A stretch of DNA of 41,945 nucleotides from Candidatus Doudnabacteria bacterium (GCA_038249015.1 JBBRWU010000001.1:1-41945); one strand, 5' to 3'; shown: positions 26,484-37,211, numbered from the stretch's first letter. Notes: generated from the sequence alone by a model not told the origin. Program-made: numbers and translations.

Positions 26484-27644
26484 CTACTTATTCCCTACTT
26501 CTTTGTAATCTTTTACCATATCTCCAAAATAATCGTAAGTTATGGCGGTGCGGATTTTTTTCATTAAATTTAAATAAAAACGTAAGTTGTGCATGGTGGC
26601 CAAGCGTATAGCCAAAGGCTCGCCCGTGGCAAATAAATGGCGCAAATAACTTTTGGTATGATTCAAACACAAATAACAATCACATTGGTTATCTACCGTA
26701 GTAAAGTCTTCTTTGTATTTTTCCAAACGGATGTCCATGGTGCTATAGCCTTCTTTACCGTCTTGATCTTTCGCACTAATATACAACCGCCCATGACGCG
26801 CTTCCCTGGTCGGAATTACACAATCAAATGTATCGCAGCCGTGGCTTACTGCCTGTACTATATCAAACGGTGTGCCCACGCCCAAAAGATGCTTGGGCGA
26901 AGTTTCCGGCAAATGTGGAATACTGGCTTCCACGGCTTTCATCATTTCACTGTGTGGTTCACCCACTGCCACTCCGCCAATTGCAAAACCTTCAAAACCC
27001 AAACTCACCATATCTTTCGCCGACTGCTCGCGCAAATCCGGAAAAGATGCGCCCTGAACAATCCCCCACAATTTTTGGCCGGGATTTACCGGGTCGCCGT
27101 CTATTATAATTTTTTGATACTCTTTGATTGCTCGCTCTGCCCAGCGCTTGGTAAGCGCAATGGATTCCTTGCTTCTTTCATATTCAAACGGGTAGCCGGG
27201 AAAATCGTCCAGAATAAGACAAATATCACTACCAAGATTGGCCTGAATGTCTATGCTTTTTTCGGGAGATAAAATTTCCGTGCGCCCGTCCATATCGAAC
27301 TGAAACACCACGCCCCCTTCCCCCACTTTGCGCGTTTTTGCCAAAGAATAAACCTGAAAACCTCCACTGTCGGTAAATATCGGTCCTTTCCAATTCATAA
27401 ACCCATGGAGTCCGCCGGCTTTATAAATAAGCGCGTCGCCCGGACGTTGCCACAAATGATAAGTATTGGCCAGCACCATTTCCGCGCCCCAAAATTTTAA
27501 CTCCTCGGAGGTGACGGACTTTACCGCGCCCTTGGTGCCAATCGGCAAAAACGCCGGTGTATTTATATCCCCGTGCGCGGTATGAATTATTCCGGTGCGA
27601 GCTTTATTTGTTCCATCGGATTTTAATATATCAAAATAAGGCAT
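26484..27644 (-). CDS. tgt: Queuine tRNA-ribosyltransferase
   Basis: Carries TPAFLPIGT, FTDSGGFQV, GFAIGG and the zinc site CDCYLC..H. Confidence 0.95.
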   Translation of the reverse strand: MPYFDILKSDGTNKARTGIIHTAHGDINTPAFLPIGTKGAVKSVTSEELKFWGAEMVLANTYHLWQRPGDALIYKAGGLHGFMNWKGPIFTDSGGFQVYSLAKTRKVGEGGVVFQFDMDGRTEILSPEKSIDIQANLGSDICLILDDFPGYPFEYERSKESIALTKRWAERAIKEYQKIIIDGDPVNPGQKLWGIVQGASFPDLREQSAKDMVSLGFEGFAIGGVAVGEPHSEMMKAVEASIPHLPETSPKHLLGVGTPFDIVQAVSHGCDTFDCVIPTREARHGRLYISAKDQDGKEGYSTMDIRLEKYKEDFTTVDNQCDCYLCLNHTKSYLRHLFATGEPLAIRLATMHNLRFYLNLMKKIRTAITYDYFGDMVKDYKEVGNK

Positions 27645-27723
27645 AGGGGTAGTATAACTTATTCGCCCAGTTAAATAAAACCTTTAGATTTTGATTTGCA
27701 ACGCAAATCATTTATAGGGTGAT

Positions 27724-27871
27724 ATAGTGGTGGTATTCTAAAATTAACTCTTTGTTTTCCATCCCGAATGCATCTGAGGGATCTCTTTGTGCTTGTTTAC
27801 ACAATGATTAACAGATTTTTCTCTCGGATGACACTGCCTCGAAATGGTTGTATTTAGAACGCTACCACTAT
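27724..27871. repeat. MITE-like or structured-RNA-like element at the tgt-proximal border of the island
   Basis: Imperfect 19-nt terminal inverted repeats atagtggtggtattctaaa (27724-27742) and tttagaacgctaccactat (27853-27871), 16 of 19 complementary. Two of the three mismatches would be G-U pairs on the plus strand. Internal hairpins are present. Confidence 0.4.
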
Positions 27872-27894
27872 ACATAGTCCTTTACATAAGCCCA

Positions 27895-29064
27895 TTACCG
27901 ATTTCCTTTTGCTCGGTTATGTGTTTTGCACAGCATCTCACAATTCTTGGCTGAAGTTGCGCCACCTTTACTCCAGGCCGCTACATGATCGGCTTCCATT
28001 TCGGAAAAATTCCAAATCTTATCCTTGTTAGCATCATGACCAATAGCACAGTGTGAGCAGTTCGATATACTCTTAGTTTCGGCTTTAGTAGTTTGTGTTG
28101 AGTAAACAGTTTTCTTAGTTGCTTCGTCAAAGACCCTAACGTCAAGCAATTTTGTGTCATCGGAACCACCGAGGATATACTCAAAAATACCTTTGCGATT
28201 TTTGACATACGGATCACCATAGAGTTTACGCATCTCTTTTGACACTTTCGTCGGGTTATAAGCTGTCTTATGATACACCTCATACAGTCGCCCCCATTCT
28301 AGTCCACGCATCTCACTCTCTACATCTACAAATACACCAGACACCCAATCAATCACACTGCTGAAATACTTTTTCAACTCGGTAATATTTTTTTCAAAAC
28401 GATGACTGCTCATATAATCGCCAATATTGCTTTTACTTACCCAATCAAGCGCGCATTCCAAAAAATCTTGCCTGTTGGCGCTACCCGACACATACGCACT
28501 CCATTTTTGGATATTGGAGTTTTGGCTATTGCTAAATTCCTCCTTACCGAGCGTCACAAATGGTCCTGAATACACGGCATTGAGCAACTCTTGAGGATTA
28601 AGTGGAACACCGGCAATATTGATTGTTCTAAACCATTCTTTTATCTGACTTTCTGTCCCTTCGCATTCATAGATGAGCAATTTTGTTTCCAAAATCTTGG
28701 TTTTCTTGTCTTTAGCCATACCGCTAAAATTTTGTGGATTTCCGTTCTCGTCTTTGATAGCAAATTTATCAGTCACAAAACGTCCAACACTAGTGATGCG
28801 CTGTTGCCCGTCCAAAACTTCCAGATTGTTTAGAGATACCTGATTAAAATAAATTAAACCTATTGGGTAACCTTTGAGTATTGAGTCAATAACGGCAATC
28901 TCTCTTTTTCCGCCATCTGAAGCATAAATATAGTTGCGCTGATACTCCGGCTGAATAGTGAGCTTGCCAGACAAGCCGAATAATCCTTTGCCCTCCAGTT
29001 CGTTATAGACGAACCCTTCGCAAATATCTTTGACAGTGATGTCAGTTTTTAAAATTGTTTTCAT
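27895..29064 (-). CDS. DUF262 (ParB/Srx-like NTPase, GmrSD N-domain type) fused to a C-terminal HNH nuclease
   Basis: [11 protein letters not shown] and LDGQQRITS are DUF262 hallmarks. The C-terminus CSHC...[31 protein letters not shown] is HNH. The start is taken at MKTILKT; the track ORF extends to 29115. Confidence 0.8.
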
Positions 29065-29141
29065 AATATTAAAATTTTTATTAATTTTTATCTTTTGTTT
29101 TTTTCTCAACTGCACTAATTGGTGGTTTTGCTTTTTTCATG

Positions 29142-30323
29142 TTATTTTTTCTCAATTCGCTTCTCGCGGAAAGCGTCGTCAAATATTTCATAATAATCGG
29201 CATAGATATATTTCTGTCCATAATCCGCATCGCCAAGAGGCTCAAGGATTTTTAGACCCTTGAGTCGTTCAATCACATTGTACGCTCCTGGAGCAGTGAA
29301 GCCCGTCCACTTCATTATTTCTGCCACACCGACGATCGGTTGACCAAACAACTTACGCACTATCTCTAGTGTGGACTCAGCCGATTTTTTGCCAAGTTTG
29401 TGCATTTTAGCAAAATCGCGGTCCCGCAGTGCAGTGATTTTTGTGCAAGTTTCAATAGAAGAGTTGGCAATTTCTGCGACACCTTCAAGGAAAAATTCCA
29501 ACCAGCCGTCAATATCTGCATCTTCGTCATGGTATGCCTGCAATTTTTGGTAATACAGCTTTTGGTATTTCTTGAAGTAGTTAGAGAGATACAGCACAGG
29601 CAATTCTAAAAGTTTTGCATGTTGAATATACATAGCAATGAGCATTCGCCCAGTTCGACCATTTCCATCAGTGAACGGGTGGATAGTCTCAAACTGTGCA
29701 TGTAAAAGTCCTGCTTTCACCAATGAAGGATATTCATCCTTCGCATGAATAAATTTTTCAAGGTCATCAAGAGATCTGTGCATATCATCAGGCGCAGGAG
29801 GCACAAAAGATGCATCAGCTGGAGTTTTCCCTCCAATCCAATTTTGACTATAGCGAAACTCACCCGGATATGCATGCTGGGTCGAACGCGCGCTGGTCAT
29901 TAACTTTTTATGAATTTCTTTTATCAATCGTAAAGAGATTGGCAATGTTTCTATTCTCTTCATTCCATAGTTAACGGCTTCAACATAGTGGATAATATCA
30001 TCAACATCGGGATGTTGGCGTGATTTTTCTTCTGTAACAGAAGCAGCGACTGCATCTTGTAAGGTTGCTTGAGTTCCTTCAATTTGACTGGAGTATGTTG
30101 CATCCTTTTTTATGAACATTAAAAGGAAAAAATCTTTATCCGGCAAAAGTTGCGTAATGCCATCAAGTTTACCAACAAGCCTGATTGCTTCTTCATGTTT
30201 CTTGTAGAGTCTAGGACTAATGACAAAACCACCCTTTGGAGGAAACTCAAAAGGGGTAAAGGCTCGAAAACCCTCTTTTTGGACTATATATTGGCCTATT
30301 TTCAGTTTGTTTATGTTGTTCAT
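29142..30323 (-). CDS. Fic-family protein (class II, putative AMP-transferase) with a C-terminal wHTH-like region
   Basis: The canonical Fic motif HPFTDGNGRTGR is present. The N-terminal inhibitory-helix motif SSQIEG matches (S/T)xxxE(G/N). Confidence 0.9.
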   Translation of the reverse strand: MNNINKLKIGQYIVQKEGFRAFTPFEFPPKGGFVISPRLYKKHEEAIRLVGKLDGITQLLPDKDFFLLMFIKKDATYSSQIEGTQATLQDAVAASVTEEKSRQHPDVDDIIHYVEAVNYGMKRIETLPISLRLIKEIHKKLMTSARSTQHAYPGEFRYSQNWIGGKTPADASFVPPAPDDMHRSLDDLEKFIHAKDEYPSLVKAGLLHAQFETIHPFTDGNGRTGRMLIAMYIQHAKLLELPVLYLSNYFKKYQKLYYQKLQAYHDEDADIDGWLEFFLEGVAEIANSSIETCTKITALRDRDFAKMHKLGKKSAESTLEIVRKLFGQPIVGVAEIMKWTGFTAPGAYNVIERLKGLKILEPLGDADYGQKYIYADYYEIFDDAFREKRIEKK

Positions 30324-30335
30324 ATAGATATAAAC

Positions 30336-30364
30336 ATATTATGCTATTTCGTTTATATTTGCAA
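30336..30364 (-). promoter_or_regulatory. Candidate promoter for the fic gene, TTGCAA-17 nt-TAATAT
   Basis: On the minus strand, TTGCAA is at 30364-30359 and TAATAT at 30341-30336, about 13 nt upstream of the fic ATG. Confidence 0.4.
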
Positions 30365-30402
30365 GTCTAATGTCAACTCTTTAAATATCGTTAAATCTTG
30401 CC

Positions 30403-30483
30403 TCACGATACCTTTTCAATCCTCGGCTGACCATTGTCGCCTTCATAGATTATAATTTCACCGATTTGATTGTCTTTTTTCAT
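30403..30483 (-). pseudogene. Possible N-terminal relic of a RhuM-like gene overlapping the 3' end of the RloC-like gene
   Basis: MKKDNQIGEIIIYEGDNGQPRIEKVS* resembles the conserved RhuM N-terminus (GEI.iYq..dg...iev). It stops after 26 codons. Confidence 0.3.
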
Positions 30484-32671
30484 ATTTTCTATAATTATTA
30501 TGCCAATAAGCACTGAAATGTTCACTGGCATTATTATTACCAAAAAGTTTTTGTAACATTGTTTTGATTTCATCTTTCGTCCTCCCATTTTGCTCTGCCT
30601 CCAAATCGTCAATTGAGTGTTGATTGACATCGTAAAGTTTTTTAACGCCAAGATTATTTTCAAAAAACTTATCTATACCAATAGAATTAAATTTCATATA
30701 AGTTTCGCAAATCTTCCTGAATGGATTTAGCATTATGTCTGCAGTAGCGTTATCTTCTTCATATAAAAATTGTATTTCTTTCCACAATAATTCATAGTTC
30801 GTCTTAAAATCTTGCTTGCCATTTTCAATACTTTTAATGCTTGCATGCTTGCCATCAGAAAGCAGACAATAATTACCATATTTTTCATAAAAACTAATTT
30901 CTTTATCGTTGCACTTATATTTTGTCGCCGTGTTTGGGCGAACATTTAGATAAAAATGGCAATTATGTGTTAAAAAAAGAAAATAGTTGCCATCATTAAG
31001 ATTTCTATAAAATTTTTGGATTTCACTGATCATTAAATATTGCATTGTGTCATCGTTGCTCGTCATCGGATCGTCAAAAACAACAATTTTTGGTTTACTA
31101 CTACCACTATCAACTTTTTCGAGAGAAAAAATAAAATATAAAAACGCAATAATATTTTTCTCTCCTTTGCTTAACTTCGTTATGTGTCGTACGTCACCAT
31201 CATGACCCTTGATTTTATATTGTCCTTTTTGACTTTCATCAGTATCGGTTACCAATTCAATAGAAAATGAACACGCGCCCATATTTTTCAAAAGTTCATT
31301 TATTTTTCTAGCAATTTCCTTTTCATCTTTTGTTTGCGAAATAAGATCACTTTTTTCTATTTGCCTTGCGACTAATTCTCCCTTTTTATCATTAAGTGCT
31401 TTTTCCGCCCCATCTCTACTGGTTTTCAAGGTTGATATTTTCCAGTTTTCTTCATCATACTTAAAAGTATTCAACGCTTTTTTAACTTCATGAAAACGCA
31501 AGACATTTTTTGCAGTTTCTTGCTCATTGTTTAAGTTCTTTGAAAAAAGATTATTTTTATCAACTATTTTTTCATAGTCAGTTTTAACACTACTGAAATC
31601 AGGTAGCGCTATATCAGTCAATGACTTTGATAGGGTAAACAAATTCTTCTTTTTATCTTCCAGTGCTTTGTTCAAATTACCAAGAAAAGTTTTATGTTCT
31701 CCTTTGGTATTTTTAATCTGTAAATTGATATTTTTTATTTGGTCGCCAAACTTATCATAAAAATCACCCCTGTTGATCTCCCGTAAAAAGTCTATATTTT
31801 TAAGTTCGGAATCTATTTTCTTGAGCTCATCATCAATACCGGTTTCTAACTTTTTTACTTCGTCATTAAAATAACCACCGAGCAGTTTCCATCGGTCATC
31901 ACTAATTTCATTCCCACAAAAAGCACACTTCTCGTCATTCTCGTGCTGGTGTATACGCAAACCTTCTCGCGCAAAATTTTGCTTATCTGTATTGCCTTGT
32001 AATTCAGAAATAATTTGCTGTTGAAAAACCTTTGATTGTAAAATCGTATTTGTTGATTTTTGATAATCAGACAGTATAATTTCTGGAAAATTTATTTTAG
32101 AGACATCATTTTTCTTTTCTGATTTTATAGTTTCATTGTGCTTTTTTATATCATCACTAGAAAGTAACTCTGCACTACTAATTTCTTCTTTAAATGAATT
32201 TTTATCATAACTTGTTTTTGCAATTTGTGGATTTGTCTGATTTTTTATTATCTGTGCGGAGTCACTATAAAATTTCTCTATTTTATTAGATTGTTCTTTG
32301 TACTTTTTATCCGCTCGTTCTAATTTTATAAAGATATTTTCAGACTTATCTACTGGTTGCTCAATTTCCTTTTTGATATTTACAATTTCAACATCAACCG
32401 CATCAATTTTTGTTTGAATTTTAGTATTTTCTGTCCCTAATGCAACTGCCTCTAATCGTTCATTTTCACCAACAACGCCATCGAAGCCACTAAAAATACA
32501 GACTTGATAACTATCTTGCTGTTGCGATTTTATTGTATCAGCAATAGTAGTTTTACCTGTACCATTTTTCCCAAAGATAAAATTGATTTTCTTTGTTAGT
32601 AAAAGTTCTCTGCTTTTGTTCGCAAATCTTTCTGGAAAACTTTCTAAATTTATTTTTAGTGAAGTTTCCAT
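30458..32671 (-). CDS. RloC/PrrC-like AAA_13 ATPase with coiled-coil zinc hook and an anticodon-nuclease-like C-terminal region
   Basis: Walker A FGKNGTGKTT, a long K/E-rich coiled coil with CAFCGNEI (CxxC hook), Walker B IVVFDDPMTSND, and a C-terminal NPFRKICETY...NQHS (Arg-Glu-His pattern as in PrrC/RloC). The start at METSLK (32671) lies 1 nt after the methyltransferase stop. Confidence 0.7.
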   Translation of the reverse strand: METSLKINLESFPERFANKSRELLLTKKINFIFGKNGTGKTTIADTIKSQQQDSYQVCIFSGFDGVVGENERLEAVALGTENTKIQTKIDAVDVEIVNIKKEIEQPVDKSENIFIKLERADKKYKEQSNKIEKFYSDSAQIIKNQTNPQIAKTSYDKNSFKEEISSAELLSSDDIKKHNETIKSEKKNDVSKINFPEIILSDYQKSTNTILQSKVFQQQIISELQGNTDKQNFAREGLRIHQHENDEKCAFCGNEISDDRWKLLGGYFNDEVKKLETGIDDELKKIDSELKNIDFLREINRGDFYDKFGDQIKNINLQIKNTKGEHKTFLGNLNKALEDKKKNLFTLSKSLTDIALPDFSSVKTDYEKIVDKNNLFSKNLNNEQETAKNVLRFHEVKKALNTFKYDEENWKISTLKTSRDGAEKALNDKKGELVARQIEKSDLISQTKDEKEIARKINELLKNMGACSFSIELVTDTDESQKGQYKIKGHDGDVRHITKLSKGEKNIIAFLYFIFSLEKVDSGSSKPKIVVFDDPMTSNDDTMQYLMISEIQKFYRNLNDGNYFLFLTHNCHFYLNVRPNTATKYKCNDKEISFYEKYGNYCLLSDGKHASIKSIENGKQDFKTNYELLWKEIQFLYEEDNATADIMLNPFRKICETYMKFNSIGIDKFFENNLGVKKLYDVNQHSIDDLEAEQNGRTKDEIKTMLQKLFGNNNASEHFSAYWHNNYRKYEKRQSNR

Positions 32672-32672
32672 A

Positions 32673-33860
32673 CTATTTACGTTTAATAAAAATTCTCTTA
32701 TACACCATCTTTGCAACGTTATTTTCATAGCAACCAGCTGTTGGATTACCTTCCTTGTATGCTCCAGTACCGCCAGCTTTATAATAATCATCAACAAATT
32801 TTTTTGTTAAACCTGGTGTTTTCTTAAACTTAGCGTCAACAAGGCCATTATCACTTGTTCCTAAAATTTCAAATTGATCAGGATTGTATTTGTCTAGGAA
32901 ACTAATCGGCACACCCATTACACCGTCATAGTCACTGGGGATATTTTTAACCAGTGCTATCTCAACGGCATTGTAATTATCATACTTATCAAATGATTTT
33001 TTGGTACTAAATTTTATCACATCAGCTTTAGTCATAAGCGGAATTGATTGGTGTAATCGTCCATGGTCAAGGTTGGTAAACCAACGAACACCCTGTACTC
33101 TAGTAATATAAACTTTTCTGCCGTCCTCATTTGTCTTTATTTCACGAACCTGGTCCAGATTGGCAATAGCTTCTGGAATTTCATAAAACATTGCTCCGCC
33201 ATTAACTCTTGCATTGTTGCCGAGCCAAACCCTGTTCTCTTTTATTAGTGGAAAGATTTCTTTATACGTAATGGCGTTAAGATTGCCAATGATTAAAAAT
33301 TTTTTCTTGTACTCAAAAAGTTGCTTCACATATTCGCGAAACAGACTGAACGGCGGATTTGTTACCACGATGTCGGATTGTTTAAGTAGATTTATACATT
33401 CATCACTACGAAAGTCGCCGTCGCCATCCAGTGGCATCCATTCGTTGTGCTTGTTTGCCTTTAACTGCTGGGCAATGTCCTTCAAGTTGAACTCGCCGTC
33501 ACCGTCTATGTCGCGCACTTCGTTTATAATAAATTTGTTAGCATTTACCTTGGGACGGCCTTTTAATTTTGTGAGAGTTTTGTCATCGCCAAACAAGCTT
33601 AACTGTGTGTTGGCTACAGGTGAGGGTTTGTAGCTCGTAGTGATAAGCTGTTTCAATCCAAGTTTATTAAAATTGAGCACGAAATAGCGAAAAAAATTGC
33701 TCTCAAACGGATCGTCGCAGTTGCAATAAACCACCTTGTCGCGGAATACATCGGAATTATAATCCAGATACGCTTCAATCTCTTTCTGGATATCACCGTA
33801 CTGGGTATAAAACTCGTCATTCTTTGCTCTTTTTGCGTTTGTAAGATTTTTGTTAGCCAT
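32673..33860 (-). CDS. N6-adenine DNA methyltransferase (NPPF motif), resembling the EcoRI-methylase-like family
   Basis: Contains KNDEFYTQY, VVYCNCDDPFESNF and IVVTNPPFSLFREY. The start is taken at MANKNL (33860); the longer track ORF adds an implausible leader. Confidence 0.7.
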   Translation of the reverse strand: MANKNLTNAKRAKNDEFYTQYGDIQKEIEAYLDYNSDVFRDKVVYCNCDDPFESNFFRYFVLNFNKLGLKQLITTSYKPSPVANTQLSLFGDDKTLTKLKGRPKVNANKFIINEVRDIDGDGEFNLKDIAQQLKANKHNEWMPLDGDGDFRSDECINLLKQSDIVVTNPPFSLFREYVKQLFEYKKKFLIIGNLNAITYKEIFPLIKENRVWLGNNARVNGGAMFYEIPEAIANLDQVREIKTNEDGRKVYITRVQGVRWFTNLDHGRLHQSIPLMTKADVIKFSTKKSFDKYDNYNAVEIALVKNIPSDYDGVMGVPISFLDKYNPDQFEILGTSDNGLVDAKFKKTPGLTKKFVDDYYKAGGTGAYKEGNPTAGCYENNVAKMVYKRIFIKRK

Positions 33861-33963
33861 AATTATTTTCTCTTTATTAAACCATACGCCAAAACGAAAT
33901 GTTGATTGCCTTATGTAAATTTTTATTCGAAAATTTATTTGTCCATAAAAACTCACAACTAAA

Positions 33964-34452
33964 TTACAGGTTAATATACGCCAAAGATTTTTTTAATTCT
34001 TTTTCTATTTCCTCTTGTGTTGGTAATTCTTCCAATTTAATTTTATCTTCTTTGCTATAAAAAGAATTATATACGTCTTTACTTTGCTCGCCTAAATTTT
34101 CAAATACGCCTTCTGGTAAATCGTCTATAGTTTTAAGATTGTGCTTTTCCAAGTACAAATCTATAACCATTTCCTGCATAAAATAATTTACGTCAAATAT
34201 TCTACGCCTTCGCGCCGCGGCAGCTCGTTTGGTTTTAAATCCTTCCTGATATTTATACGCCCATATAGCGCAATCTTCACAAACCATTTTGGGTTTATTG
34301 GTATAGGCATCTAAAATCGAGCCGATTCTTTCAAATTTCTTACGGCAATAATAGCAAGGCTTATCTTGCATTTGTGACTTATGCCCTTTGTCAGAATTAT
34401 TGCGAAAATATTTAAACTTAATTTGTGATAAAATTTCTTCTTTATCCGACAT
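33964..34452 (-). CDS. Hypothetical Zn-ribbon protein, first gene of the island
   Basis: 162 aa with CYYC...CEDC (a four-Cys pair), a basic stretch KRAAAARRRR and an acidic C-terminus. No family is recognised. Confidence 0.55.
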   Translation of the reverse strand: MSDKEEILSQIKFKYFRNNSDKGHKSQMQDKPCYYCRKKFERIGSILDAYTNKPKMVCEDCAIWAYKYQEGFKTKRAAAARRRRIFDVNYFMQEMVIDLYLEKHNLKTIDDLPEGVFENLGEQSKDVYNSFYSKEDKIKLEELPTQEEIEKELKKSLAYINL

Positions 34453-34815
34453 ATTACTTTTTCAATCCCTAATTATCAAACTCCGACCTTTAAGTATCAC
34501 TTTCAACTTTCCTACTTCGCTCAAGACTTCAGCGGACTCACTTTCTAACTTGAACATTTTTCGGTTTCCAATCACTGATGATTATTTTTTTGCCTTTCAA
34601 TTTTACCACAATACGCTGCTTCTCTTTCCATTTCACTTTTAAACAAATATGTATGAACCATAATTGGCGGGGCGAATATTTTTGTCCTTATATTTAGTAT
34701 TTGCCATATGTAAGCCCCGGTTAGAAAAAACGCTCTAACGAGGTAAATAATTATGTAAGGAATTAATTACTTATATAATAGCGCTAAAATGAAGTTTTGT
34801 TAAATACAGGCTAAA

Positions 34816-34850
34816 ATAGACGCCTTCTGATTATTTCAGAAGGCGTCTAT
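34816..34850 (-). terminator. Strong bidirectional hairpin terminator (15-bp perfect stem)
   Basis: atagacgccttctga-ttatt-tcagaaggcgtctat with A-runs and T-runs on both sides. Confidence 0.75.
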
Positions 34851-34875
34851 TTTAATTTTTCTTAAATGATACCTA

Positions 34876-35496
34876 TTACTTACAAAGCTGTGCGCTTCGG
34901 CATTGAAGTTTGGCTGCCGGGTCTGTTAAGCTATCACAAAGTTTACAGGCTTCCGGGTCTGAGCCGACCGGTTTGGCAGTAGCCGGAATTTTAGCAAAAT
35001 CCTGAAAAGTAATATTTGCAGGAGGAGTTAAAATTTCATCACTGGCAGTCCAAGCCTCACAACTAAAGTTCATCTGATTATTTAATTGCGCCTCAGCCTG
35101 ACCTGCAGATTGTGGTTCACTCAAAGACATCTTTACACCCATAGAGCCACCGTCCATCCAAATATAATTATATTTACCATCGGTTATCATATGACTGTTT
35201 ATTGTTCGTCCGTCTGTTTTTGCCTGAAAATCCCCGCGTAATTTATTATTGCTCATATAAACAACTCCCGAGGAATCCCCCGGCACGGTCGGGTCGTTAA
35301 AGGTACATTTTTGTGAAACCGATTGACCCATTAACTCTTTAAGAGTTGTGGATTTTTGGTTAGCCTGTTCCTGTTTTTTTTCGGAGGTTCCTGAATTTTG
35401 ATTTTTTACGACATTTTTGCGGCTTAGTGTAAACGCCCAAGCTGCTACCAAAAACACCAAGACAGCAACCCCTATCCATATTGCTTTTTTGTTCAT
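34876..35496 (-). CDS. Secreted or membrane-anchored hypothetical protein
   Basis: N-terminal signal anchor MNKKAIWIGVAVLVFLVAAWAF, with paired Cys residues in the C-terminal part. Confidence 0.6.
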   Translation of the reverse strand: MNKKAIWIGVAVLVFLVAAWAFTLSRKNVVKNQNSGTSEKKQEQANQKSTTLKELMGQSVSQKCTFNDPTVPGDSSGVVYMSNNKLRGDFQAKTDGRTINSHMITDGKYNYIWMDGGSMGVKMSLSEPQSAGQAEAQLNNQMNFSCEAWTASDEILTPPANITFQDFAKIPATAKPVGSDPEACKLCDSLTDPAAKLQCRSAQLCK

Positions 35497-35895: not shown

Positions 35896-36744
35896 TTAGC
35901 CCTTTACTTCTGATTTAAAATTTTGTAATTGACCATAAATTATTTTTATGGTCGGATGTGCATTCAGTTCTTTTAATTTTTGTGCGTCAAAAATCATGGC
36001 GAGCAATGCTCCAACATTATTTAGTGCACCTTCATAATGAACGGCTAAATGCTTTAACTCGGGCTTGCCCAAAACATATTCTTTAAAAAATTTAAGTTGC
36101 AAAAATATTTGGTAAAGTACCAAGTCGCGATATAAATTATCGTTTTCTGTTTTTCCCTCCTGCCAATCGCGAACTACGCGGGTGGTATCAGCCGCGTTCA
36201 TCATAACCACCACCCTGGGCAAATGGTCAAGTGAACCTTCAAATGAACCGTCACTGGAACGAAAATATTTTACCTTCCCCAAATCCCCGCGCTCAATTTG
36301 CTCACGGATGATTTTAAATTTTTTTGACGGATCATGCTGGTAGGTTACGTCCAAAGCCAAACCCAAATATTTTTTTCCCTGTTTTCCGGGAAATTCTACA
36401 ACTCCGTCTATGCCGTTATGCAAATCATCATACTCAGTCGGCATGACCATCCGCGCATTTTTTCCAAACCATTCGGCACTGTTAGTTCGGTCACAAAATA
36501 CCGCTTCCAAACATTTGGCAAGCTTGTATTCAGGTTGTTCTGAATTGGAAAAATTCCTTTTTCGATTTTCAACATATCTCGCGTCATTTTTAACTTCTCT
36601 GGTATTTGCGGGGTTTGTGGCAAAAGATTCAATTTTAAGCGCGTTGCTTTCTATATATTCCAAGGCTCTTTTATAAGCACTTTCAATATCTATCGGTTTT
36701 TCCAATGCGGGTGTTTCATGTAAATTATGGTTTAATTCTGACAT
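35896..36744 (-). CDS. Hypothetical protein
   Basis: 282-aa ORF with no confidently recognised motif. Confidence 0.55.
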   Translation of the reverse strand: MSELNHNLHETPALEKPIDIESAYKRALEYIESNALKIESFATNPANTREVKNDARYVENRKRNFSNSEQPEYKLAKCLEAVFCDRTNSAEWFGKNARMVMPTEYDDLHNGIDGVVEFPGKQGKKYLGLALDVTYQHDPSKKFKIIREQIERGDLGKVKYFRSSDGSFEGSLDHLPRVVVMMNAADTTRVVRDWQEGKTENDNLYRDLVLYQIFLQLKFFKEYVLGKPELKHLAVHYEGALNNVGALLAMIFDAQKLKELNAHPTIKIIYGQLQNFKSEVKG

Positions 36745-36830: not shown

Positions 36831-37211
36831 TTAATTAACTCTACTTTCAGGAATTTCACCTTTTAATCTCTCGGCAGTCACTTGCGAGTTTTCGCCTGCC
36901 AATCCAGCTTGATTAAAGGCTTCCGCCAAACTATTATGAACGTCAGCTCTATTTCTAAATAACGCCGCGGCATCTTCTGGTGTCATATTGGATTGTTCTG
37001 CAACCTCTGTAAGCTCAACGACAATTCTCTGTCTTTCGTCCGGTGACATGGCCAAAAGTAACTCAGGATCTAAACCTCTCTGGCGTATTATATCTCGAAA
37101 CCTCCCAACCTCGCCTCGTTTTTGATGAGATCCTCTTAATTGACTTCTAAACGGCCCGGAGCTTTCTTCAGTTGGCACTTGAGGAGCACCTATAACTTCT
37201 TTGTAAGACAT
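36831..37211 (-). CDS. Hypothetical protein
   Basis: 126-aa ORF with no motif recognised. Confidence 0.5.
   Translation of the reverse strand: MSYKEVIGAPQVPTEESSGPFRSQLRGSHQKRGEVGRFRDIIRQRGLDPELLLAMSPDERQRIVVELTEVAEQSNMTPEDAAALFRNRADVHNSLAEAFNQAGLAGENSQVTAERLKGEIPESRVN

Follow-up and report, generated by a model that had tools for sequence, protein, structure and literature searches.

The defence-type island in a 41,945-nt stretch of a Candidatus Doudnabacteria bacterium genome (GCA_038249015.1, JBBRWU010000001.1:1-41945; hereafter the window, on which all coordinates are based) is probably a mosaic, in which a two-gene restriction–modification (RM) cassette carries defence genes of known types embedded at the junction between its methylase (M) and nuclease (R) genes. 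The island region lies between tgt (26484-27644) and a signal-peptide-like gene of 206 amino acids (aa; 34876-35496), which bracket five minus-strand open reading frames (ORFs). An earlier note, made from the sequence alone, had read these ORFs as one AT-rich block combining three effector types with a lone methyltransferase. All five are present and co-oriented on the minus strand, the non-coding border stretches, put at ~250 and ~420 bp, measure 250 bp and 423 bp, and the domain calls were confirmed (PF13651 with NPPF; AAA_13 with Walker A and CxxC; Fic; DUF262 plus HNH). The general label of a defence-type island without integrase, tRNA or repeats also stands. The island itself comprises four genes: a methylase (revised limits 32673-33860, 395 aa), an ATPase (revised limits 30458-32671, 737 aa), a Fic protein and a nuclease (revised limits 27895-29064, 389 aa); a 162-aa gene next to the methylase is excluded.

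The upstream bookend of the island, on the minus strand, is an EcoRI-family N6-adenine DNA methyltransferase (PF13651, 2.8e-125; PADLOC MTase_II, 2.5e-103) with the motif IV sequence NPPF at aa 168 (33348-33359). It is 44% identical to canonical M.EcoRI overall and 55% identical over the first 200 residues. The downstream bookend, also on the minus strand, is a DUF262-HNH nuclease (GmrSD_N, 2e-20; HNH, 3.5e-6), matched over its full length by PADLOC REase_II (2.4e-76). Its DUF262 part is a ParB/Srx-like nucleoside triphosphatase (NTPase) domain with DGQQR at 28798-28812, part of an invariant LDGQQR at aa 84-89. The HNH domain (27916-27990) is of the zinc type, CxxC...CxxxC, and matches Pfam PF01844 HNH and HNH_5.

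These two genes form a conserved and widespread pair. Homologues of the nuclease number more than 8000, and the top 120 are 84-91% identical to it and belong to numerous Patescibacteria lineages as well as to other groups. When one genome per species was scanned, 505 held a nuclease relative, and we examined the neighbourhood in the best 80 (81-88% identity), which include Omnitrophota, Nitrospirota, Bacteroidota, Elusimicrobiota, Chloroflexota and Geobacter metagenome-assembled genomes. In 72 of the 80 the nuclease is preceded, on the same strand, by an EcoRI-family methylase (46-88% identical); in the remaining eight, either little upstream sequence is available or cargo fills it (for example, RhuM in loci L020 and L040), and absence of the methylase was demonstrated nowhere. 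Plasmids carry the M-R pair too, among them megaplasmids of Enterococcus faecium, a 9-kb plasmid of Moraxella osloensis and one from Leuconostoc; it is also present in Flavobacterium phage vB_FspS_laban6-1, in all 18 IMG/VR viral contigs having room upstream, and in a second clade whose nuclease is just 37-38% identical. Searching 1.84 billion cluster representatives with the nuclease recovered 424 clusters (50% identity) at E <= 1e-30, and the ~365-420-aa architecture is retained down to ~35% identity.

The methylase is thus not lone, as the earlier note had it, because a co-oriented nuclease partner is conserved across genomes, plasmids, phage and viral contigs. Likewise, the DUF262-HNH protein, which had been counted as one of three separate effectors, is the conserved partner of the methylase (PADLOC MTase_II plus REase_II) and not a free-standing GmrSD-type effector. 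We consider it very improbable that the nuclease is a type IV, modification-dependent enzyme of the GmrSD/BrxU kind, functionally unrelated to the methylase. The DUF262 N-domain with its DGQQR NTPase motif and weak PADLOC matches to HEC-05/06, NsnA and PD-T4-2 favour that idea, and GmrSD, BrxU and SspE share with the window's protein an N-terminal DUF262 domain with DGQQR and a C-terminal His-Me-type nuclease (PMC4619093, PMC12707154). Those enzymes, however, carry DUF1524, are stand-alone or phosphorothioate-linked and depend on modification, whereas this one has a zinc HNH (PF01844), gives no Pfam match to DUF1524, has REase_II as its best full-length PADLOC model and is tied to an adenine methylase. 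Such a linkage is not typical of GmrSD-type genes, and its near-universal tightness, including 4-nt overlaps, would be self-destructive for an enzyme dependent on N6-methyladenine (m6A).

The junction between the two genes is where the loci differ. Among the 72 loci, M and R abut or overlap (gap <= 13 nt) in 38 and are split by an insert of 0.6-4.3 kb in 34, and all inserted ORFs are co-oriented with the pair. The inserted ORFs fall into ~31 clusters. RhuM (PADLOC PDC-S05) is cargo in 11 loci, and Pfam and PADLOC assign other inserts to DUF2130, T5orf172/PDC-S57, Bro-N/PDC-S13, AntA/PDC-M59A, HEPN AbiU2, OLD/AriA/GajA-like ATP-binding cassette (ABC) ATPases, PIN_8, NYN, HATPase plus DUF4325, and PD-Lambda-5 (a ParB-like protein with a D12 methylase). 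In L028 (1632-4413) a second RM system, a C5 cytosine methylase with a HATPase-type REase_II, is nested within the M-R cassette. About 12 cargo ORFs have no Pfam or PADLOC match, including L010 7600-8760, L076 7469-8524, L052 454-1449 and L021 8921-9787; further unmatched cargo lies in the inserts of L027, L037, L054, L059, L061 and L069. By analogy with ‘guilt-by-embedding’, these would be candidate new defence genes.

Abortive-infection genes embedded in RM loci are of an already known kind, and the PADLOC PDC families derive from defence genes found within Hma, BREX, DISARM and type I RM loci (bioRxiv 10.1101/2024.01.29.577857). The cassette shares the repertoire of those genes (PDC-S05, PDC-S06, PDC-S13, PDC-S57, ABC/OLD ATPases and GmrSD-like genes) and their nested, co-oriented arrangement. 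It differs from the hosts surveyed there, which did not include a two-gene host annotated as type II, and here the cargo enters at the single M|R junction.

Nucleotide homology between the window and the related loci is limited to the nuclease and methylase ORFs, plus Fic in two to three loci. The exact set of four or five genes occurs in none of ~180 related loci, where its components recur independently, the ATPase and Fic genes being optional cargo among at least 30 families; the five genes are therefore not the co-occurring unit that the earlier note proposed. Nor do the parts fall outside what is catalogued, each component mapping to an entry (PADLOC MTase_II, REase_II, PDC-S06 and SoFic). 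That a single integrated system of five genes, with three effectors and a lone methyltransferase, operates here is accordingly hardly credible, despite the co-orientation, the short spacers and the 1-nt gap between methylase and ATPase; the 162-aa gene belongs to a syntenic backbone by pnp, next to another RM allele in L089 and to none in L092.

The first cargo gene in the window (30458-32671, minus strand) encodes an RloC/PrrC-like ABC ATPase (AAA_13, 3.7e-100; PADLOC PDC-S06, 8.6e-235). The PDC-S06 match is to PDLC04897 and spans residues 48-767 of the ORF, and PADLOC PrrC matches weakly (3.5e-8). Its start codon lies 1 nt past the methylase stop, and we infer that its translation is coupled to that of the methylase. 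The protein has a Walker A motif (GKNGTGKT at 34), an ABC signature (LSKGE at 500) and a Walker B motif (IVVFDDP at 529). A CxxC zinc hook (C249-x2-C252, 31916-31927) and a C-terminal R652-x3-E656 (30704-30718) are both invariant in 31 homologues, and JGI labels homologues of the protein ‘wobble nucleotide-excising tRNase’. Zinc hook, ABC motifs and size resemble those of RloC (658-897 aa; PMC2610378), and an ABC ATPase with an R-x3-E...H C-terminal domain inside an RM operon recalls PrrC, which sits within the type Ic EcoprrI locus (PMC12707154, PMC2610378); here, unlike EcoprrI, the host is an EcoRI-family methylase with a DUF262-HNH partner rather than a type I system. Sequence and profile searches of PDB with the ATPase gave a P-loop match to AriA only. 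Assignment as an anticodon nuclease is, from these motifs, likely but not secure.

The close relatives of the ATPase keep the same company. Four of the six nearest homologues examined lie between the same M and R families: P0135 (63% identical) and P0143 (59%) in the order M-ATPase-R with 1-3-nt junctions and a nuclease of the 37% clade, and P0136 (63%) and P0140 (61%) in the order M-ATPase-DUF2130-R, where the nuclease shares 78-80% identity with that of the window. P0141 adjoins a split type ISP enzyme and P0147 stands alone. Members of the sub-lineage are embedded in RM in five of seven cases, in contrast to RloC, which is described as rarely RM-linked. With such recurrence in the same cassette, it is plausible that the ATPase is functionally tied to the RM pair in the manner of PrrC. 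The nearest homologues directly follow the methylase in L095-98, L101, L165 and L167. A DUF2130 protein, for which PADLOC has no matching model, directly follows the ATPase in 12 of 59 unrelated loci (among L103-L164), and the ATPase-DUF2130 pair, or DUF2130 by itself, is also M-R cargo (L165, L167, L008, L019, L053 and L077); the two may form a two-gene module. In another RM-embedded setting of this lineage, a 59%-identical homologue of the ATPase ends a split type ISP restriction locus that holds an embedded SLFN/AlbA_2-HATPase gene (L166, 1-7142).

The second cargo gene (29142-30323, minus strand) encodes a class II Fic protein of the SoFic type, 393 aa long (Pfam Fic plus Fic_N; PADLOC SoFic, 1.5e-105). 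Its Fic motif HPFTDGNGRTGR at aa 215 (29646-29681) follows the HPFxDGNGRxxR pattern of SoFic, and the inhibitory SSQIEG at aa 78 is N-terminal and corresponds to the SxxxEG helix. Solved SoFic chains in PDB match at ~1e-25. In L047 and L061 a copy of the gene with 83% identity immediately precedes the nuclease, and more distant Fic genes are found upstream of the methylase in three loci. The spacer upstream of Fic (30324-30457, minus strand) holds a promoter-like TTGACA...-10 sequence, and 51 nt beside the Fic start travel with this cargo (84% identical in L047, 78% in L061). Unlike SoFic, the gene has no room 3' for a small AS1-like antitoxin gene, because only 77 nt separate it from the nuclease. 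These 77 nt hold the 3' end of a RhuM (PDC-S05) gene and its junction to the nuclease start, 43 nt (29065-29107, minus strand) that are near-identical to L050 and L006; the relic encodes ...EKKTKDKN* as part of a 19-codon chimeric mini-ORF. An earlier RhuM cargo at this position has evidently been overwritten.

We favour a layered arrangement at this island, the mechanism of which is drawn from family membership. The EcoRI-family methylase would mark host DNA, and the DUF262-HNH protein, given its conserved linkage and its family, would be the cognate nuclease that attacks unmarked incoming DNA. The M|R junction is a recurrent landing site for other defence genes, two of which the window holds. 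Its cargo has been turned over by recombination, with the RhuM relic left behind, and the whole cassette sits in a variable slot between the 162-aa gene and tgt. ATPase and Fic protein would most likely be second-line abortive-infection modules that target translation and fire when restriction fails. As a member of its family, the RloC-like ATPase would cleave tRNA anticodon loops once triggered. By analogy with PrrC it might be silenced by the surrounding RM proteins, so that inhibition of the RM system could be the trigger (PMC12707154, PMC2610378). SoFic is an abortive-infection toxin (PMC12249575) with EF-Tu as its target (bioRxiv 10.64898/2026.07.09.737422), and the SoFic-type enzyme in the window would likewise AMPylate EF-Tu and abort infection.

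Several observations weigh against this account. Conservation is higher in the nuclease than in its methylase, and nuclease identity does not depend on the methylase module type described below (0.836-0.851), which is atypical of classical type II systems. Sequence and profile searches of PDB returned no relative of the nuclease, and no description of an M.EcoRI-family methylase paired with a DUF262-HNH protein was found in the literature searched. A helix-turn-helix (HTH) controller gene lies upstream in only ~7 of 59 loci. The invariant histidines of the ATPase, H685 (30617-30619) at x28 and H718 at x61, fall off the published spacing of the triad, which is Arg-x3-Glu-x36-52-His in RloC and x31 in PrrC (PMC2610378). 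Among distant metagenome relatives of the ATPase (30-59% identity) only one of 62 is embedded in the cassette, so RM coupling is not obligatory. Finally, with 140 bits the Fic protein stays below the cut-off of 550 set for the NCBIfam SoFic equivalog NF046030; on its sequence we regard it as a family member and not as an orthologue of Shewanella oneidensis SoFic.

Two broader associations were considered and rejected on these counts: the HTH controller (~7 of 59 loci) is not part of the cassette, nor is the ATPase family at large tied to it (1 of 62 metagenome loci). The same PDB searches gave no match for the methylase, and an AlphaFold2 model of the nuclease, built from a shallow alignment of 84-91%-identity sequences, was unusable (pLDDT, the predicted local distance difference test, 51).

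The unusual triad spacing bears on whether the ATPase might work as a subunit within this RM sub-lineage, acting with the nuclease as a Rad50/SMC-like motor that senses DNA, instead of being an independent anticodon nuclease. Such a role would fit the gene's place directly after the methylase, at a distance of 1-14 nt or with an overlap of 4 nt, which the window shares with four of the six nearest relatives from two nuclease clades. It would also fit the finding that the Rad50-like region of RloC is a DNA-dependent ATPase (PMC3458546). We nonetheless judge it improbable. Nothing lies between M and R in 38 of the 72 cassettes, 33 of the 34 inserts are other cargo, and the ATPase is absent from a set of 85 cassette loci. 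Outside the cassette stand 61 of the 62 distant relatives, with DUF2130 as partner in 12 of 59, and the invariant R-x3-E and histidine residues fit a retained nuclease.

The contrast between a modular methylase and a near-invariant nuclease raises a further question about how the cassette selects its targets. In an alignment of 63 methylases the scaffold is conserved, with residues 1-200 at ~80% pairwise identity, and it is interrupted by two hypervariable modules, V1 (aa 214-262; 33075-33221, minus strand), for which the window has type 2 of 8, and V2 (aa 337-384; 32709-32852, minus strand), for which it has type 1 of 20. These discrete variants occur in 34 combinations among the 63 sequences. 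The nuclease has no variable module, and its all-pairs median identity is 83.8%. Identity between nuclease genes is 54% at codon position 3, 88% at position 1 and 92% at position 2, and their GC content follows host GC (r = 0.64), a pattern that argues for long residence under unusually strong purifying selection and not for a recent sweep. In viral and plasmid copies identity is 64-80% for R and only 41-57% for M. If V1 and V2 set specificity, the nuclease could not have a matching specificity of its own and would need either to rely on the methylase or to read the methylation state.

A non-classical RM system of this kind, in which the nuclease, without sequence specificity of its own, borrows it from the modular methylase in a complex by type III or type I logic or reads the m6A state through its ParB-like DUF262 domain as SspE might, with the embedded genes still as cargo, seems to us unlikely overall but worth serious consideration. 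In type III RM, Mod carries a swappable target-recognition domain and Res is conserved. The cassette resembles that arrangement in placing a conserved nuclease gene beside a methylase with mosaic hypervariable modules, and differs in having no helicase-type Res and another methylase family. One sequence, P0337 (688 aa), joins EcoRI_methylase, DUF262 and HNH in a single polypeptide with a degenerate motif IV (TFPSF vs TNPPF). It could be a natural M-R fusion with a recognition-only methylase, a role that the FPSF motif would suit, or a frameshift or gene-calling artefact. DUF262 domains also sense modification in GmrSD and SspE (PMC12065111).

Other evidence points back to a conventional pairing. 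The role of V1 and V2 as specificity determinants is an assumption, and M.EcoRI (L187), whose partner is an independent PD-(D/E)XK nuclease, has the same scaffold, a V1 that shares ~71% identity with type 1, and a V2 that is short and type-6-like. The window's methylase is like that of EcoRI in Pfam family, NPPF and scaffold; it differs in V1 and V2, in its DUF262-HNH partner in place of PD-(D/E)XK R.EcoRI, and in the order M then R. A palindromic, type IIP-like site is hinted at by GAATTC, the most depleted of the 64 palindromic hexamers in five loci that share one module combination (the window, L028, L031, L063 and L077, from different phylum-level lineages). There it occurs 10 times against 29.1 expected (p = 4e-5; permutation p 0.005-0.02), and twice against 10.6 expected in the window alone. 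No such depletion was seen in the groups with other module types, and pooled k-mer avoidance over 1.28 Mb revealed generic palindrome avoidance only. The signal also clashes with a simple module logic, in that the modules of M.EcoRI differ from the window's. We take the GAATTC depletion as no more than suggestive of real restriction pressure. Separately, TCGA is depleted in the window (32 vs 66 expected), which hints at an additional, TaqI-like RM activity in the host.

Neither the cassette, nor its frequent role as an embedding host, nor the combination of a near-invariant nuclease with a modular methylase is described in the literature searched. A bolder proposal, which we put forward tentatively and think rather doubtful as a whole, is that the cassette represents an undescribed restriction class, in which a near-invariant ParB-like-NTPase/HNH nuclease is directed to its target by a methylase that shuffles two recognition modules independently, and the M|R junction is a dedicated dock. 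Abortive-infection genes, for example the RloC-like ATPase with its constant place after the methylase, would be wired in there and keep watch on the RM complex.

Under the mosaic reading, both embedded modules would strike translation, as a second layer behind restriction. The compact cassette is very widespread, in at least 505 species genomes and 424 clusters (50% identity) as well as plasmids and phages, and nearly half of the sampled copies hold swappable cargo at one exact junction. With these loci, ‘guilt-by-embedding’ reaches an RM host of two genes, and the inserts supply a list of candidate defence genes that are still uncharacterised. The repeated presence of an RloC-like gene in a non-type-I RM locus offers a small, clonable model for how embedded genes sense restriction failure, and cultured carriers make experiments feasible: E. 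faecium with plasmid pBN83-1 (NZ_CP142416), M. osloensis NBRC 115781 with pSKB0120-6 (AP031478) and Leuconostoc mesenteroides F-22 (NZ_CP133478).

Base composition bears out the AT-richness reported for the block only in part. The ATPase (GC 30.4%; 26.5% at third codon positions) and the 162-aa gene (32.3%) are AT-rich, whereas the methylase (38.2%), Fic (40.6%) and nuclease (39.3%) genes are near the window mean of 39.7%, yet below tgt, glyS and pnp (42-46%).

The borders carry few marks of mobility. We found no tRNA gene within 20 kb of the island, no integrase among the flanking ORFs scanned and no long direct repeat at the borders, as the earlier note had stated; target-site duplications, or junctions common to syntenic relatives, were likewise not found, and an Rfam search of the intergenic regions matched no family. 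Just 3' of the nuclease stop and before tgt lies an imperfect hairpin of ~150 nt (27715-27880, minus strand; minimum free energy -43.9 kcal/mol, z = -4.3 vs shuffles). It had been called MITE-like, after miniature inverted-repeat transposable elements, an identity that is ruled out: no second copy exists in the window or ~180 related loci, and its 31-nt arms are merely 74% complementary. A terminator, an insulator or an insertion scar are possible explanations. The strong terminator noted at the other border is present, with a perfect 19-bp stem (34812-34854), and serves the upstream 206-aa gene rather than the island.

The 162-aa CxxC...CxxC gene (33964-34452, minus strand), which the earlier note had included in the island as a Zn-ribbon gene, is lineage-specific backbone. 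It matches no Pfam, PADLOC or NCBIfam family, and 5.8 billion clusters contain just five homologues, which share an invariant AARRRRIFDV motif and a syntenic position downstream of pnp; no cassette locus contains a homologue. L089 (pnp 88%, tgt 78% identical) is arranged as pnp-...-162aa-M-R-tgt; its methylase is 46% and its nuclease 37% identical to that of the window, and the two represent another allele of this M-R family at the same site. L092 (pnp 81%, tgt 85% identical) reads pnp-162aa-96aa-APH-tgt and lacks the RM pair. Because the 162-aa gene is kept beside another RM allele and where there is none, it is backbone and not part of a mobile block, and the slot between it and tgt is variable, holding differing alleles of one RM family or other genes.

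Two ORFs that lie between pnp and the 206-aa gene, of 282 aa (35896-36744) and 126 aa (36831-37211), have no Pfam, NCBIfam or PHROGs match and only a marginal PADLOC match. Neither occurs in L089 or L092, and the variable part of the pnp-tgt interval thus extends beyond the island. Upstream of the 162-aa gene, a promoter-like TTAACA-17-TATTAT is followed by a 34-nt AT-rich near-palindrome, GGTAAATAATTATGTAAGGAATTAATTACTTATA (34742-34775). This near-palindrome is kept upstream of the same gene in L092-L094 and occurs twice in L089, once directly upstream of tgt, and it may be a lineage-specific regulatory element.

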